The notes under the pieces were generated by a model. That model did no database searches and was not told the DNA's origin. It worked only from the letters and a program-made list of their open reading frames with translations. From assembly GCA_003354005.1 (NCBI GenBank), contig PIWD01000003.1, forward strand, positions 1 to 60,873: 60,873 nucleotides of DNA, given 5' to 3'. Below are positions 48,453 through 55,765 of the stretch, piece after piece. The stretch is from Gammaproteobacteria bacterium (lineage in GTDB: Bacteria > Pseudomonadota > Gammaproteobacteria > PIWD01). Numbering within the stretch: the first letter of the stretch is position 1; the number at the start of each line of letters is the position of its first letter. Both the position numbers and the translations under genes were made by a program.

Positions 48453-49672
48453 AAATGCTAACAGCCACAAATGATGCCATACAGCGACCAACTCCTTGGC
48501 AAAACAGATGTCTTAAATTGAGTCAGTGGAGTGCGATTGGAGTGGGTTTCTCACTACCATTTTCGACCAGTGCAACTGATATTCTGTTTATTAGTGCTGT
48601 GCTTGCTTATCTAGCCTCAAATACATTAAAGCAGCTTTACAACGACCAATTTGGATCAAATCGTAACACAATTGCATTGATTCTTATGGGAGCCTTTACA
48701 TTTATGCTACTGGGTGTAAGTTATACACAAGCACCGATAAACGATATCATCCATAGCCTGCATAAATATCAAAAACTAGCCATAGCAGCAATATTGTTCC
48801 CTGTATTCAGTGATGTGCTAACAAAAAAACGGTCTTTACTGGCCTTACTTGTATCATTATTTATTTTTATGTTAATCACCTACATTGCTTACTATCACGT
48901 ACTTCCTATATCAGGTTATAGAAATGACCCACAACAACAGGCTGCTATTTTCAAAAACCATATTGCCAGCAATTTCTTAATGGCATTATTCAGCTACTTT
49001 TTAGCTTATTTGATGATATACAATCGACCATATCGCTGGTTGTTCACAATCTTGTGGTGCGCAAGCACTTACAACGTGCTGTATCTAAGTTCTGGACGTT
49101 CTGGGTATATTATTTTCATTGTATTGATGCTGTTATTGGCATGGCAGCGATGGCGTTTAAAAGGGATAGCTTCTGTAAGCCTCCTGTTGCTATTTCTTTT
49201 ACTTATAACCTACCAACATGCACCTACCTTTAGAAAACGGCTTCAGCAGGCAGTAACGGCCGTTGTACGGCATGATATACATGCGTCTACAGGTGAGAGA
49301 ATAGCATATGCAAAAAATAGCTTGCGATTAATAAAAGAGAGTCCTGTAATTGGCTTTGGAACGGGCAGCTTTGCTCATCAATATAAACGCATCAGCGGAT
49401 GGGCAAACTATAACCCACACAATGAATATTTGCATATCGGCGTTCAATTTGGTGTATTTGGCATCCTCTTATTGATTGCCATGATGTTACACCAATGGTG
49501 GACTAGTTTCAGCTTATCACAACCATACAAAGCATTTGCTCAAGCCATAATATGCACAATGCTTATAGGATTTTGTATTAACAGTTGGTTAATGGACACG
49601 ACACAAGGACACATATACGTGTATATGCTTGCAATATGCTTCTCCAGGACAACACCAAAAATAGAACGATAA
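48449..49672 (+). CDS. O-antigen ligase family membrane protein (WaaL-like)
   Basis: About 10 TM segments and a periplasmic loop with GSFA...YNPHNEYLHIGVQFGVFG (Wzy_C-type motif). Confidence 0.75.
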   Translation: MKMLTATNDAIQRPTPWQNRCLKLSQWSAIGVGFSLPFSTSATDILFISAVLAYLASNTLKQLYNDQFGSNRNTIALILMGAFTFMLLGVSYTQAPINDIIHSLHKYQKLAIAAILFPVFSDVLTKKRSLLALLVSLFIFMLITYIAYYHVLPISGYRNDPQQQAAIFKNHIASNFLMALFSYFLAYLMIYNRPYRWLFTILWCASTYNVLYLSSGRSGYIIFIVLMLLLAWQRWRLKGIASVSLLLLFLLLITYQHAPTFRKRLQQAVTAVVRHDIHASTGERIAYAKNSLRLIKESPVIGFGTGSFAHQYKRISGWANYNPHNEYLHIGVQFGVFGILLLIAMMLHQWWTSFSLSQPYKAFAQAIICTMLIGFCINSWLMDTTQGHIYVYMLAICFSRTTPKIER

Positions 49673-49702
49673 ACTAACTTAACTGTTTTGCCGAAACAAA
49701 AG

Positions 49703-49930
49703 TTATCCACAGCCTTAATATATATAGTAAGTATATATATATATAAGTTATAGTAGTTATTACTGCTGTGGATAAGTGTCCAAATTGACCGCAACCCACT
49801 GTCAACTGTTGGATTGCTCGACTGGATAAGCTGTTAGTAACTTGTGGATAAGCTGTGGACAATATCTGGATAACTTTAAAAAAATAAATTATCCACAGCT
49901 TATCCACAAGTTACTAACAGCTTATCCACA
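49703..49930. promoter_or_regulatory. DnaA-box cluster with adjacent TA-rich tract: candidate oriC (or datA-like DnaA-binding locus)
   Basis: Perfect TTATCCACA at 49703-49711(+), 49767-49775(rc), 49843-49851(rc), 49889-49897(+), 49900-49908(+) and 49922-49930(+). Near-boxes at 49822-49830, 49854-49862 and 49865-49873. A highly AT-rich tract with a (TA)n run lies at 49712-49766. A 41-bp inverted repeat pairs 49822-49862 with 49889-49930. Confidence 0.7.
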
Positions 49931-50089
49931 GGCTGTTAATATTCTTAACCTTTTGGAATTCTCCGCACAGACTAGCATTGAGTAACTTTGGTGGGTTATG
50001 TTGCAAAAATGAGTGGTATACAAGAAAATATCTATTTAATTAAGTATTAAAGGTAAAATTAATGGTCAAGTTTTCAGGCAGACATTTTT

Positions 50090-50218
50090 CTAAGGATTAA
50101 GGTAACTATAATCAAATTCATCAACTCCATCATCAATCGCCTTCTCGATTTCATCTCTATTAGTGTTATTACAAGCAAGTGTCTTATCAGATATACCATC
50201 AAGGTACATATATTTCAT
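50090..50218 (-). CDS. possible 42-aa acidic ORF (last gene of the orphan operon)
   Basis: Hand translation MKYMYLDGISDKTLACNNTNRDEIEKAIDDGVDEFDYSYLNP. It lies 19 nt downstream of the stop at 50238 on the same strand. No homology support. Confidence 0.2.
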   Translation of the reverse strand: MKYMYLDGISDKTLACNNTNRDEIEKAIDDGVDEFDYSYLNP

Positions 50219-50237
50219 CTCGATTCTTAGACTTTTT

Positions 50238-50801
50238 TTAAACCATTCCAATGGCAGTATTAAGATATTTTTTCTTTCTTAAATACCGTGCCTGTAGTAA
50301 AACATTTTCTGAAATTTTACTGGATGAGACCCCTGTAAAGGGCTCATTCTCAAACATCTTCAAAAGAGGGGTCACTTCAACAATAAATTTAACAGATTGC
50401 CCATTAGGACAGCTTGGTACATCTGGCGCATCACTTATATCTATTGCAGAACTAGCATTTGTTTCCAAATTATATCCTCGTTCAAAATCCTCCAATCTAT
50501 TGATTATGTGGCGTTTGATATTATCTTCATTATCTTCTTCACAACAAGTACCATTCTCTATTTCTTTCCACAACAAACAAACTGTATCCACTAGAAGTGT
50601 AACTTCAAAAGTTTTCATGAGAACACTTTTAATAATTTCATTATCTTTAACTTCTTCAGCAAATTTTAAAATATTTTCTTTTATTTTATCACAATCGTAG
50701 TTACTATATTTCACCTTCAAGCGTGAAAGACGCCCGAAGGACGAGCACTCATAGCGGTTAATTTTTAAGTCAGGGGATGTCGTGTGGTGAATAATATTCA
50801 C
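50238..50801 (-). CDS. hypothetical protein (187 aa), AT-rich orphan
   Basis: Long ORF in an AT-rich region. The antisense ORF is S/L-rich junk. No recognisable domain. Confidence 0.5.
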   Translation of the reverse strand: MNIIHHTTSPDLKINRYECSSFGRLSRLKVKYSNYDCDKIKENILKFAEEVKDNEIIKSVLMKTFEVTLLVDTVCLLWKEIENGTCCEEDNEDNIKRHIINRLEDFERGYNLETNASSAIDISDAPDVPSCPNGQSVKFIVEVTPLLKMFENEPFTGVSSSKISENVLLQARYLRKKKYLNTAIGMV

Positions 50802-51210
50802 TTATATCAAACATAAACGCAAAAATACAATAGATTTCTTTACAAATAAAATAACTCGAACCAACTGTAGGTATTCCTAAAGCTACTGCCCCTATCCGAA
50901 ATAAACGAGAATGTTCAAATATCCACATACGCATAACAGTCCACCAAACTTTATGCTGGGTTATTATCCTAACAAGAAAGCCGTCGATCCACCCACTGAT
51001 TATAGCTATACACAGACCAAAACAAAGCACTAAAAATGAAAGAATTGGCAATAAAACAAGATATTTTAAAGCACTTAAAATTCTGCCACGTAATAATTCT
51101 TCGAGCCATGTAAACATGCTAAGCACAACTGCTAATGCAATTGGTATAAGACCAAACAAAATAGCAAGGATCGATCCAAAAATTTTGTTAAATACCATAA
51201 TTAGCACCAA
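50770..51210 (-). CDS. hypothetical membrane protein (146 aa, about 4 TM)
   Basis: Hydrophobic segments FGSILAILFGLIPIALAVVL, LVLLPILSFLVLCFGLCIAII and IGAVALGIPTVG. It overlaps the next ORF by 32 nt. Confidence 0.5.
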   Translation of the reverse strand: MVLIMVFNKIFGSILAILFGLIPIALAVVLSMFTWLEELLRGRILSALKYLVLLPILSFLVLCFGLCIAIISGWIDGFLVRIITQHKVWWTVMRMWIFEHSRLFRIGAVALGIPTVGSSYFICKEIYCIFAFMFDISEYYSPHDIP

Positions 51211-51252
51211 GTTGTTACGCTGAGACTGGTTGTGTTGAAAAGTTTTATTGGT

Positions 51253-51552
51253 TCAAAGGATGCGTGTATTCTGTTCAAGCAAGGATTCCTGCTGGTTAGA
51301 TTGCGCTTGCTGAGTTTGAGAGGCAGGAGCAAAAAACTGTGGTGAGCCTATCCTTGGGATGTTGCTAGTAGCAAAAGCAGGCCTAAGTATTACTTGGGCA
51401 TTTCTACAACAGGAAGAGTCATCGTCTGGAAATATGTTATTGATATCTTTTTGCTCTTCTGGCTCTTTCACCATCGCTCCCCAAGCTAACAATTCATCTA
51501 CAAGAACTCTTGCCTCCTCCTCAGCTACAATAGATATTTTCTTATATGCCAC
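51253..51552 (-). CDS. hypothetical protein (99 aa), acidic N-terminal helix and Q-rich tail
   Basis: First ORF of the minus-strand orphan cluster. No recognisable domain. Confidence 0.45.
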   Translation of the reverse strand: MAYKKISIVAEEEARVLVDELLAWGAMVKEPEEQKDINNIFPDDDSSCCRNAQVILRPAFATSNIPRIGSPQFFAPASQTQQAQSNQQESLLEQNTRIL

Positions 51553-51678: not shown

Positions 51679-52869
51679 ATGCCACGCTATGATAATAGAA
51701 AATTATTTCGTTATGATCCTTACTTAGGGATTACAATTATAAGCCTGTTACTCGTTGGATTGTTGATGGTGGCATCGGCCTCAATGGTGATATCGGATCA
51801 CCGTTTTCACCATCCGTTCCATTTTATTATGCGTCAGTGCAGTTATGCTATAACTGGTCTACTATTCGGTTGGATTATTACACGTATACCTTTGTACGTC
51901 TGGGAAAAGGCTTCTAAATTGATGCTATTAAGTGGCTTGCTACTTCTCTTGCTTGTATTGATCCCTGGCATTGGTCATTTGGTTAATGGTAGTCGACGTT
52001 GGTTATTTATTGGGTCTTTTGGTTTACAACCTTCGGAGTGGATGAAATTTTCTATGATCGTATATCTAGCAGATTTTTTAGTTCGTCATAACGATGAAGT
52101 GCGTAGGCGGATCTGGGGATTTTTAAAGCCTATGTCCTTACTGTGTATCGTAGCTATTTTATTATTGTTAGAGCCTGATTTTGGTACTACTGCTGTTTTA
52201 ACTATAGTCACGTTAGGGATGATGTTTTGGGCTGGTGTGCCCTGGCATCGTTTTCTTTTACTCTTGTTACTAGCAGGTTCTGCCTTGACAGCTTTAGTAA
52301 TTTCGTCACCATATCGTCTGACGCGCCTTACTAGTTTTTTACATCCATGGCAACATCCTTTTCATTCTGGTTATCAGTTAACCCAATCTTTAATCGCATT
52401 TGGTCGTGGTGGTGTGTGGGGGATGGGGCTAGGCAATGGTATTCAGAAATTATTTTATTTGCCAGAGGCACATACTGACTTCCTATTTGCAGTAATTGCT
52501 GAAGAATTTGGTTTGTTGGGTTCATTTGCTTTAGTAATAGGATTTAGCTTCCTCGTTGGTCGTGGGTTATATTGGGCTTGGCAAGCATCTAAATATGAAG
52601 AAGGATTTGCGGCATATGTTGCCTACGGTATTAGCTTGTGGTTTGCTTTACAGGCAGCCATTAATATAGGGGTTAATTTAGGGCTCTTGCCGACAAAAGG
52701 CTTGACCTTGCCACTTATAAGTTATGGTGGAAGTAGTTTATTGATAAGTTGTATTGCCATGGGGTTATTGCTGCGTGTTGGTCATGAAATGACTGTACTT
52801 AAACGTCAAAAACCTATTGCATCTAAAAATCGATCACCTAGAAGTGCTGTTAAAAGGAGAGTATATTGA
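51679..52869 (+). CDS. ftsW: peptidoglycan glycosyltransferase FtsW (SEDS family)
   Basis: 10-TM SEDS pattern: QPSEWMKF, PDFGT, LPEAHTDFLFAVIAEEFG and PLISYGGSS. Followed by murG. Confidence 0.9.
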   Translation: MPRYDNRKLFRYDPYLGITIISLLLVGLLMVASASMVISDHRFHHPFHFIMRQCSYAITGLLFGWIITRIPLYVWEKASKLMLLSGLLLLLLVLIPGIGHLVNGSRRWLFIGSFGLQPSEWMKFSMIVYLADFLVRHNDEVRRRIWGFLKPMSLLCIVAILLLLEPDFGTTAVLTIVTLGMMFWAGVPWHRFLLLLLLAGSALTALVISSPYRLTRLTSFLHPWQHPFHSGYQLTQSLIAFGRGGVWGMGLGNGIQKLFYLPEAHTDFLFAVIAEEFGLLGSFALVIGFSFLVGRGLYWAWQASKYEEGFAAYVAYGISLWFALQAAINIGVNLGLLPTKGLTLPLISYGGSSLLISCIAMGLLLRVGHEMTVLKRQKPIASKNRSPRSAVKRRVY

Positions 52870-53999
52870 AATTTTGCATACTAGCTGGTGTAACTGGTGG
52901 GCATATTATGCCAGCACTTGAATTAAGTCGAGTATTACGAGCACATGGACATGATATCCATTGGTTGGGAGCGAGTGGCGGGCAAGAAGTTGTTTTGGCA
53001 GAGCGTGCTGGTTTTCAGGTGCATGTTATCAAACTAAAACGCTTGCGTAGTACGGGTCGTTGGCATTGGTTATTTGTACCTTGGAGACTACTGTTTGCTT
53101 GTATAAAGGCTTGGCGTATACTGCGTCACTTGTCGGTAGATAGAGTAATTGGATTTGGTGGAATGCTTACAGCCCCAGGCGGTGTTGCTGCGTATTTGCT
53201 GAACAAACCACTTATTTTGCATGAACAGAATGCGGTGATTGGCCTGACCAACCGTTGTTTATCTTATTTTGCATCTGGCATCATTACTGCTTTTCCAAAA
53301 TCTGCTTATCACAATTCTAGGATACGTTCTCCCCTGCATTATTTAGGTTGCCCTATACGCCAAGCATTGATAGAAGTTGGTAAGAGGCGTAAAGAACAGG
53401 CTTATAGTGGTCATATGTCAACATCTTGTAAAAAGCAACCTGAAAAAGCTGGAACTGATCAATTTAGATTACTCATCTTAGGCGGAAGCTTGGGAGCACT
53501 TGCTTTAAACCGCTTCTTGCCAGAAGTCATACAAGCCTTACTTAAGGCTAATGTACCATTATTAGTGCACCATCAATGTGGTCAAAGGCATATTCTTACA
53601 CTCCAAACCCATTATAAACAACTTTCTCTGCCTGATGACGTGATAAACATCACACCCTTTATTGAAAGTATCGAAAAAGCTTATGCTTGGGCTGATCTTG
53701 TCATCGCTAGAGCTGGTGGCATGACCATAAGCGAATTGTCAGCAACAGCATCTGCCAGCATCTTGATACCCTATCCACACGCAGCAGATCAGCACCAACA
53801 TGCCAACGCAGATTACTACGTAGCCCAGCATGCAAGTATCATACAGACGGAAGCAACTTTACAAATTGAGCCATTTGCCAACTTATTAATGAATTTAATC
53901 AACAACACCAAAAAATTAATCGAGATGCGTCGTGCTGCGCATGCCTTAGCAAAGCCACGCGCCAGCGAGCAGATGCTAAAAATTCTACAGCAATTTTAA
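52866..53999 (+). CDS. murG: UDP-N-acetylglucosamine--N-acetylmuramyl-(pentapeptide) pyrophosphoryl-undecaprenol GlcNAc transferase
   Basis: AGVTGGHIMPALEL, LHEQNAV.G..N and ARAGGMTISEL motifs. TTG start overlapping the ftsW stop. Confidence 0.9.
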   Translation: MKFCILAGVTGGHIMPALELSRVLRAHGHDIHWLGASGGQEVVLAERAGFQVHVIKLKRLRSTGRWHWLFVPWRLLFACIKAWRILRHLSVDRVIGFGGMLTAPGGVAAYLLNKPLILHEQNAVIGLTNRCLSYFASGIITAFPKSAYHNSRIRSPLHYLGCPIRQALIEVGKRRKEQAYSGHMSTSCKKQPEKAGTDQFRLLILGGSLGALALNRFLPEVIQALLKANVPLLVHHQCGQRHILTLQTHYKQLSLPDDVINITPFIESIEKAYAWADLVIARAGGMTISELSATASASILIPYPHAADQHQHANADYYVAQHASIIQTEATLQIEPFANLLMNLINNTKKLIEMRRAAHALAKPRASEQMLKILQQF

Positions 54000-55006: not shown

Positions 55007-55765
55007 ATGGTAGTTATTCGTCTAGCAAGGGCTGGTGCAAAGAAGCACCCTTTTTATCACATTGTCGTTGCAAATAAAAGCAGCCCTCGTGATGGCAATT
55101 TTATTGCTAAGTTAGGGTTTCACAATCCGGTCGCACGTGGCAAGGAGCAGATATTAGCCTTGGATCTCAAGGCAGTCGAACATTGGGTTAAACGTGGCGC
55201 ACAGCCTTCCAACAGTGTAAAAAAACTGATAAAACGTGCAAGAAAACTGGCTGCAAATGACAAAGATCAAGAGACTATGACAGCAGAAGAAGTTGTACAA
55301 GAAAAAGAAGGCCAATCAGCAAAAAAACCTAGTTCTCCGAAAAAAATCACAAGCAAAACTAAAGCCACAACCGAAAATAAAAAGGAAAAAGATATAGCTA
55401 ACGCTGAAAGTGCACCCAAAACAAAACCCGCCGAGAAAGTTAAGATATCTCAAACAGCCGAAGTAAGCAGCAAGCCAACTGGAATAGCTGCACCTGAAGA
55501 GGAAAAAGTGAGTAAAGTAGTCCCACCTAAAGCTACCTCTAAAATGGAAACAAAGGCAATCAAAAAACCAAGTGAGACGACTTCGCCTAAGGTTGCATCC
55601 AAAACAAAAACAAATAAAACATCTGCCAAAAAAGAACCCGTAGTGGAAAAAGATACGGCAGCAAAAATAACCAGGCCTAAGGCAAAACAGCACAAATCCA
55701 CAGTTAAGTCGGAATCAGTGACGGAAATAACAAAAGCTAAATCAAAAAAAAATAAGAAGACCTAG
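55007..55765 (+). CDS. rpsP: 30S ribosomal protein S16 with a roughly 170-aa Lys/Thr/Ala/Pro/Glu-rich C-terminal extension
   Basis: The N-terminal 80 aa [41 protein letters not shown]...[10 protein letters not shown] is canonical S16. The same ORF continues for 170 more codons. It is followed by rimM-trmD-rplS. Confidence 0.9.

Follow-up and report, generated by a model that had tools for sequence, protein, structure and literature searches.

A phased cluster of DnaA boxes between waaL and ftsW

We describe a dense cluster of DnaA boxes on contig PIWD01000003.1 of an uncultured gammaproteobacterium, which was analysed as a complete contig of 60,873 bp (hereafter the window; all window-wide ranks and counts refer to it). 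The cluster occupies a tail-to-tail gap: waaL, on the plus strand, ends at 49672, and the minus-strand open reading frames (ORFs) facing it end at 50238. The right edge of this gap shifts to about 50090 if a small 42-aa ORF is real, and no gene starts within it. From its anatomy, summarized in Table 1, we consider the cluster very probably to be a DnaA-dependent origin module.

Six perfect TTATCCACA boxes lie within a span of 228 bp, starting at 49703(+), 49767(-), 49843(-), 49889(+), 49900(+) and 49922(+). They are all the copies that the contig contains, where 0.75 would be expected; none of 100 dinucleotide-preserving shuffles gave six. Two further boxes differ by one mismatch, 49854(-) (TTGTCCACA) and 49865(-) (TTATCCAGA), and one by two mismatches, 49821(-) (TTATCCAGT). 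Within the two arrays, the starts of the boxes keep strictly to an 11-bp lattice (minus strand: 49821, 49832, 49843, 49854, 49865; plus strand: 49889, 49900, 49911, 49922), in which 49832 and 49911 are taken by TTACTAACA sites with three mismatches. The box-density score reaches 22.5 at the cluster, roughly fourfold the values found in any other 500-bp stretch outside its immediate flank (at most 5.5).

The AT-rich tract at the left of the cluster is bracketed by perfect boxes on both sides, each with its 3' end toward the tract. By nearest-neighbour free energy, the least stable 30-mer and the least stable 50-mer of the whole contig both fall in it (49714-49763): the 50-mer has -44.3 kcal/mol, against a contig mean of -64.1 (standard deviation 4.1) and -49.9 for the runner-up. 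On computed duplex stability, the tract is a strong candidate unwinding element. Its right end reads ...TAGTAGTTATTACTGC, with two consensus DnaA-trio units next to the R1-like box; a gap with a candidate site for integration host factor (IHF) follows before the first array.

Most of both DnaA-site arrays is held by a near-perfect inverted repeat, whose arms of 41 nt each (49823-49863 and 49888-49928) stand 24 nt apart and are 98% complementary. As single-stranded DNA, the repeat is predicted to fold with -41.8 kcal/mol (z = -14). A smaller inverted repeat of 18 nt (49703-49720 and 49758-49775, 89% complementary) includes the boxes at 49703 and 49767. The near-perfect state of the 41-nt repeat suggests that the structure may be evolutionarily young. 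We considered an RNA gene at the inverted repeat and rejected it: Rfam gave sub-threshold matches to microRNA hairpins, which we take as artefacts of the long inverted repeat.

These results largely agree with an earlier note on this DNA. Its six perfect boxes stand, its three near-perfect ones being the two with one mismatch and the one with two, and its expectation of fewer than one perfect 9-mer per 61 kb fits the value obtained by shuffling. The AT-rich (TA)n tract that it had seen between facing boxes is indeed the least stable DNA of the contig. The 41-bp inverted repeat is present as well, with one mismatch instead of the three reported.

Table 1 Features of the box cluster and adjoining ORFs, in contig coordinates
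Feature	Position	Strand	Remarks
Left flanking perfect box	49703-49711	+	far side of AT tract; 3' end (ACA) toward tract
Candidate DNA-unwinding element	49712-49766		55 bp, 80% A+T, (TA)n run
TT[A/G]T(T)-type motifs	49748-49751, 49757-49761	+	flank TAGTAG
TAGTAG, two consensus DnaA-trio units (3'-GAT-5')	49751-49756	+	10 nt upstream of R1-like box
R1-like perfect box, TGTGGATAA on plus strand	49767-49775	-	abuts AT tract; E. coli R1 orientation
Gap from R1-like box to left array	49776-49820		45 bp; holds candidate IHF site
Candidate IHF site AATCCAACAGTTG	49803-49815	-	8/9 specified positions
Left DnaA-site array, five sites	49821-49873	-	mismatches 2, 3, 0, 1, 1; 11-bp period
Near-perfect 41-nt inverted repeat	49823-49928		holds most of both DnaA-site arrays
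A-rich spacer CTTTAAAAAAATAAA	49874-49888		15 bp; between opposed arrays
Right DnaA-site array, four sites	49889-49930	+	49889, 49900, 49922 perfect; 49911 with 3 mismatches; 11-bp period
Possible 42-aa ORF	50090-50218	-	adjoins box cluster
Three orphan ORFs	50238-51552	-	187, 146 and 99 aa; adjoin box cluster

So many strong boxes might instead mark a locus for DnaA titration or nucleotide cycling, of the datA, DARS or B. subtilis-cluster type, with the true oriC elsewhere, for instance beside dnaA as is assumed for L. pneumophila. With six perfect boxes against two, it surpasses E. coli oriC as a high-affinity cluster; no skew switch is seen at the cluster, no origin indicator gene is present on the contig, and by convention the L. 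pneumophila origin is placed at dnaA (PMC5042515). However, the least stable DNA of the contig lies here between two R1-oriented boxes, with TAGTAG beside one of them, and the order of R1-like box, gap, array and array is that of working origins. To our knowledge, neither datA and DARS1-2 of E. coli nor the DnaA-box clusters of B. subtilis have an unwinding element or the R1-type geometry of box and unwinding element. The earlier note had listed a datA- or DARS-like locus as an alternative; the candidate unwinding element found between the boxes counts against it, and we hold titration to be unlikely.

The same pattern in metagenomes and viral contigs

The right arm of the cluster, read as box, 2 bp, box, 13 bp, box (27 specified bases), served as query in metagenomes of the Joint Genome Institute (JGI). 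It returned at least 120 exact matches, for which we estimate a chance expectation far below one; the contigs of the matches listed span 27-73% G+C. Sequence homology of our region to the 120 listed loci is confined to the boxes.

Six loci among the 120 matches listed stand beside dnaA and/or dnaN (L014, L016, L073, L116, L021 and L043). In L073, between dnaA and dnaN, an AT-rich tract is followed by TAGTAGTAGTAG, a 13-nt spacer, TGTGGATAA and a 44-bp gap, then by three minus-strand boxes, a 16-bp A-rich spacer and five plus-strand boxes, which is element for element the arrangement described here. The layout of L044 is also alike, with a (TA)n run, and L051 carries its mirror image. L014 and L016, beside dnaA, agree with the cluster as well. 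Both L073 and L044 have (TAG)3-4 at the position equivalent to TAGTAG and a comparable A-rich spacer between the arrays.

Among the 120 matches listed, opposed arrays come in the minus-then-plus order 22 times and in the reverse order three times. Of the 44 listed metagenome loci of at least 4 kb, 18 have their least stable 50-mer no more than 100 bp away from the box cluster, where 2.6 would be expected. Phased arrays next to an unstable tract thus form a recurrent origin-type module, of which the cluster studied here is a typical example. The origin-type reading is strengthened because the R1 orientation, the 45-bp gap and the opposed 11-bp arrays match both E. coli and the metagenomic origins at dnaA-dnaN.

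Several matches occur in other surroundings. In three JGI contigs of 3-4 kb (L044, L055 and L110), an oriC-like module adjoins a gene for a 196-aa tyrosine recombinase; it consists of a TA-rich tract, (TAG)3-4, a 13-nt spacer, a box, a gap and opposed phased arrays, the perfect boxes numbering up to 11, and L055 and L110 additionally encode a DUF6266 protein. These contigs may stem from a DnaA-dependent replicon that is mobile or plasmid-like, or may carry the origin of a lineage not yet recognised. Identical terminal overlaps, 62 bp in L011 (4037 bp) and 127 bp in L050 (4854 bp), make it probable that these two are small circular replicons; each carries a direct array of DnaA boxes (L011 six perfect ones, L050 five perfect and one with a single mismatch) and ORFs without Pfam match. 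In three low-GC contigs, opposed arrays of perfect boxes adjoin nusA (L051 and L037) and/or a uracil-DNA glycosylase gene (L051 and L019). The arrays of L051 lie between these two genes and come with a mirrored module of trio and unwinding element; such a locus probably serves as chromosomal origin in a lineage with its oriC away from dnaA.

In IMG/VR, the phased triple of perfect boxes was found in 106 predicted viral contigs (L131-L236), the median number of boxes in a cluster being six. Of the 100 viral loci of at least 4 kb, 35 have their least stable 50-mer next to the array (5.1 expected), and none of the 106 viral arrays has the module of (TAG)≥3, spacer and box. This suggests widespread DnaA-dependent origins, or else DnaA sinks, in phages.

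Because viral contigs also have similar arrays beside an unstable tract, we keep as a rival that the origin is secondary, cryptic or of recent capture. It would then belong to a pair of oriC-like loci, or be a module that a mobile element or phage brought in with the orphan genes, and it might not fire in vivo. Besides the 106 viral contigs and the two apparently circular ones, the complete module beside tyrosine recombinases in L044, L055 and L110 speaks for this rival, as do the adjacent ORFs at 50238-51552, with their lower GC and lack of homologues, the fact that relatives do not have the cluster at matching places, the young-looking inverted repeat and a skew that is not centred on the cluster; dual origins have also been described (bioRxiv 10.1101/2025.08.05.668638). 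Against it, Pfam revealed no integrase, replication-initiator, partition or phage gene nearby and PHROGs gave no match, no flanking direct (att-like) repeats were found, and the tRNA-Lys gene is 4 kb off, beyond ftsW-murG. Moreover, the module with at least three TAG units, absent from the viral arrays, is partly present here. Taken together, we find a secondary or captured origin rather improbable.

Host and gene neighbourhood

The contig is chromosomal by its housekeeping gene content, which comprises priA, glyQS, ftsW, murG and rpsP-rimM-trmD-rplS, as well as hemC, rpiA, gshA/B, metK, ahcY, argG/H, pyrF, dut, cca, pyrC and sodB. It also carries icmW at 21272-21721(-) (Pfam PF23130, E = 2e-48). 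The best named relatives of its FtsW are uncultured Gammaproteobacteria, among them a 'Coxiella sp.' metagenome-assembled genome (about 56% identity), and the FtsW of the nearest known relative is only 70% identical. Because of icmW and these FtsW relatives, we take the host to be, in all likelihood, an uncultured Legionellales- or Coxiellales-like gammaproteobacterium bearing Dot/Icm (type IVB secretion).

The DnaA cluster is separated from ftsW-murG (plus strand, 51679-53999) by the three orphan ORFs, and past ftsW-murG comes the tRNA-Lys gene. The G+C content of the ORFs for 187 and 146 aa is about 34%, that of the 99-aa one 43%; none of the three has a match in Pfam or PHROGs, and the 187-aa protein has zero homologues among 1.84 billion representative proteins. 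The earlier note had placed the site between a waaL-like gene and an AT-rich orphan operon.

DnaA is also a transcription factor at box clusters elsewhere, for example at oriCII-gidA of P. aeruginosa (PMC13438810), and the boxes could form a DnaA-controlled promoter or operator for the neighbouring operons, or a transcription terminator or roadblock; one terminator-like hairpin is present at 49915-49938. Promoter control, which the earlier note had also considered, is unlikely because the flanking genes converge on the cluster, which sits tail-to-tail between waaL and the minus-strand ORFs and contains no gene start. In addition, only two promoter-like sites were found against 5.3 expected, and nine to eleven phased sites together with an unwinding element far exceed operator use. 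We consider such regulatory roles highly improbable.

Some further observations concern the neighbouring genes. ftsW-murG is isolated, with no murD upstream and no murC downstream, and ftsW of L002, the closest relative, likewise comes after divergent genes that are unrelated (DoxX, BufA1 and HvfC); the dcw cluster seems to be split in the host lineage. The rpsP gene (55007-55765(+)) encodes an S16 protein of 252 aa with a C-terminal extension of about 170 residues rich in Lys, Ala, Pro, Ser and Thr, the usual S16 having about 82 aa. In the stretch 19377-21721 (minus strand), icmW is followed by ORFs for 419 and 207 aa, neither with a Pfam match; the 419-aa one presumably occupies the place of icmX, going by the gene order of Legionella and Coxiella. 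Finally, a block of lower G+C (about 34-36%) at 24.5-29.7 kb contains argG, argH and an amino-acid ATP-binding cassette (ABC) transporter, which includes two permease-like ORFs on opposite strands.

Weighing the chromosomal origin

We read the cluster as a functional origin that depends on DnaA and, most likely, as the host's chromosomal oriC, a reading that we judge to be probable. The origin would then lie in a lineage-specific neighbourhood, away from dnaA, dnaN, gidA and rpmH. DnaA boxes far above chance and an AT-rich unwinding element flanked by a box whose 3' end faces it, the latter by computed stability only, are both present here, as one expects of an oriC.

Several observations weigh against this reading. 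Box density was ranked within this one contig of the replicon. As the earlier note had stated, the usual indicator genes are missing: tblastn with E. coli DnaA, DnaN and RpmH found no dnaA, dnaN or rpmH in the contig, and Pfam scans found no GIDA/MnmG (gidA) among its ORFs, so that the adjacency typical of an oriC is not there. Such adjacency is usual, not obligatory. The priA-waaL genes are transcribed head-on toward the cluster.

Some details of the module itself are also unfavourable. A DnaA-trio array is defined as at least three NAN units, with the consensus 3'-GAT-5', within 16 bp of a box (PMC8287927). The cluster falls short of this rule because its in-frame run is TAT AAG TTA TAG TAG, with only two consensus trios. 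In gammaproteobacterial origins the IHF site, WATCARNNNNTTR, has a conserved C 21 bp downstream of R1 (bioRxiv 10.1101/2025.08.05.668638); the sole IHF match here outside the boxes (one mismatch) is on the opposite strand and not at that position, and the C of a top-strand TGTCAA is 27 bp from the R1-like box.

Relatives do not share the cluster at matching places either. In L002 (70% FtsW identity), no DnaA boxes occur in the 5.7 kb upstream of ftsW, where the genes are different. No boxes occur downstream of waaL in L004 and L005, which have the closest WaaL (51% identity); in L004, a tRNA gene comes after waaL, together with an ORF that lacks annotation and that by eye could be aroE-like. 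The more distant waaL contexts L006-L009 likewise showed no DnaA boxes. As for Legionella and Coxiella, the literature on their origins yielded only the convention by which L. pneumophila genomes are started at dnaA as the origin (PMC5042515).

Skew, which the earlier note had proposed as a check on the complete replicon, gives no support at the cluster. We computed it within the contig as GC skew at third codon positions (GC3), with gene orientation as covariate and change points scored by a chi-square-like gain. At 49.5-51.5 kb the skew changes in the direction expected of an origin, by a gain of 1.2-2.7 that is not significant; the highest gain, 16.8 (25.2 when 45.3-51.6 kb is left out), belongs to a change point at 30-32 kb. 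The test has low power because the contig extends only 11 kb to the right of the cluster, and gene-to-gene scatter is large. GC3, TA3 and keto3 skew, with and without the 45.3-51.6 kb block, showed no switch at the cluster, and FtsK-orienting polar sequences (KOPS) and Chi motifs are too sparse in the contig for use. We note that plus-strand skew is about -0.15 to the left of the change point at ~29.7-32 kb and about zero to slightly positive to its right; the change point falls near the intergenic region between the divergent argH and an ORF at 30033, where there are no DnaA boxes.

There is no GATC in 49000-50500, against 220 in the contig. The GATC-rich 13-mers and clustered GATC for SeqA of an E. 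coli-type ('dam clade') oriC are thus absent. GATC scarcity at an origin is expected outside the dam clade.

The candidate oriC of the earlier note is upheld in its origin-type anatomy; as the chromosomal oriC it stays a candidate, with no significant skew change at 49.8 kb.

A related history would reconcile some of these points. The cluster could be a recently installed chromosomal origin, i.e. a self-contained oriC cassette, made up of unwinding element, trios, R1-type box and opposed phased arrays, that was captured or relocated together with the orphan genes into a lineage-specific junction between the lipopolysaccharide (LPS)-core genes and ftsW-murG. This would explain why the 41-nt repeat looks young, why relatives lack the cluster at both flanks and why the GC3-skew transition is about 19 kb away. 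Cassettes of oriC type do occur beside small tyrosine recombinases, and phased arrays devoid of trios on small circular and viral contigs. We regard recent installation as quite doubtful; if true, a mobile DnaA-dependent origin would here have brought about origin turnover, which would bear on how origins move.

Proposed mechanism and meaning

For an origin at this site we propose the following mechanism, drawn from the sequence and the E. coli and B. subtilis models. DnaA would first bind the high-affinity boxes, after which ATP-DnaA would fill the weak sites in 11-bp phase, building two opposed oligomers, one over 49821-49873 (minus) and one over 49889-49930 (plus). DnaA at the R1-like box (49767) would then engage the adjacent TAGTAG/TTATT single strand, possibly aided by a bend in the 45-bp gap, whereupon the unstable AT tract (49712-49766) would open and the helicase be loaded. 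From the far side of the tract, the box at 49703 faces it in the same relative orientation and could hold a second DnaA on the other strand.

What is distinctive here are the six perfect boxes, the 41-nt near-perfect inverted repeat carrying the arrays and the unwinding element with boxes on both sides. The architecture is otherwise textbook and of an ordinary, well-known kind; it is the neighbourhood that is unusual. Because the architecture is textbook, the gain for replication biology is small; it would grow if the origin turned out to have been relocated or captured recently. If the site is the oriC, it would fix the start of replication in an uncultured, Dot/Icm-bearing Legionellales-like bacterium, help to orient a future genome and growth-rate estimates from metagenome coverage, and give a clear example of a canonical origin module away from dnaA, dnaN, gidA and rpmH.

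Comparison with known origins and DnaA-box loci

The arrays on viral and small circular contigs share with the cluster the pattern of box, 2 bp, box, 13 bp, box and often adjoin unstable DNA. These arrays and some of the metagenomic ones lie among phage or mobile-element genes or ORFs without Pfam match, in contrast to the housekeeping context here, and no viral array (0 of 106) has the TAG-trio module with three or more TAG, of which the cluster has a partial version. With datA, DARS and the B. subtilis clusters it has in common high-affinity boxes away from dnaA and possibly an IHF site; unlike them, it brackets the least stable DNA of its contig with boxes.

Dual origins, oriC1 and oriC2, have been predicted in Pseudomonadaceae and Halomonadaceae with an R1-type box, trios and IHF as criteria (bioRxiv 10.1101/2025.08.05.668638). 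They too are oriC-like modules of Gammaproteobacteria, and the present one is possibly also one of several per chromosome. The dual modules sit at rpmH-dnaA and at gidA, unlike the cluster, and the conserved C of their IHF site, 21 bp from R1, has no counterpart here.

In the basal unwinding system of B. subtilis, the 3' end of a box points toward the unwinding tract (PMC8287927). Like origins of the B. subtilis incC type and L073, the cluster combines an AT-rich tract, TAG repeats, a short spacer, a box facing the tract and more arrays. It has two TAG units where the published basal-unwinding rule has at least three, and a spacer of 10 nt between trio and box where 13 nt is commonest in basal unwinding origins; unlike these origins, it does not adjoin dnaA or dnaN.

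E. coli oriC consists of an unwinding element, R1, an IHF site, a left DnaA array and a right DnaA array (PMC5716108), and we compared the cluster directly with the sequence of MG1655. The two differ in that the cluster has no GATC-containing 13-mers, six perfect boxes against two, an additional box beyond the unwinding element, arrays that form a 41-nt near-perfect inverted repeat and an IHF-like site off the conserved position; its neighbours are waaL, orphan genes and ftsW, those of E. coli oriC gidA and mioC. In both, the unwinding element is followed by TGTGGATAA (R1) in the same orientation, and then by a gap, of 45 bp here and 46 bp between R1 and R5M in E. coli. From the R1-like box to the start of the last box, the distance is 155 bp here and 180 bp in E. 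coli. Sites in R1 orientation come first and those of opposite orientation (R2 and R4 in E. coli) afterwards, so that both origins present opposed arrays whose sites are 2 bp apart (11-bp period), with high-affinity and weak sites interleaved.

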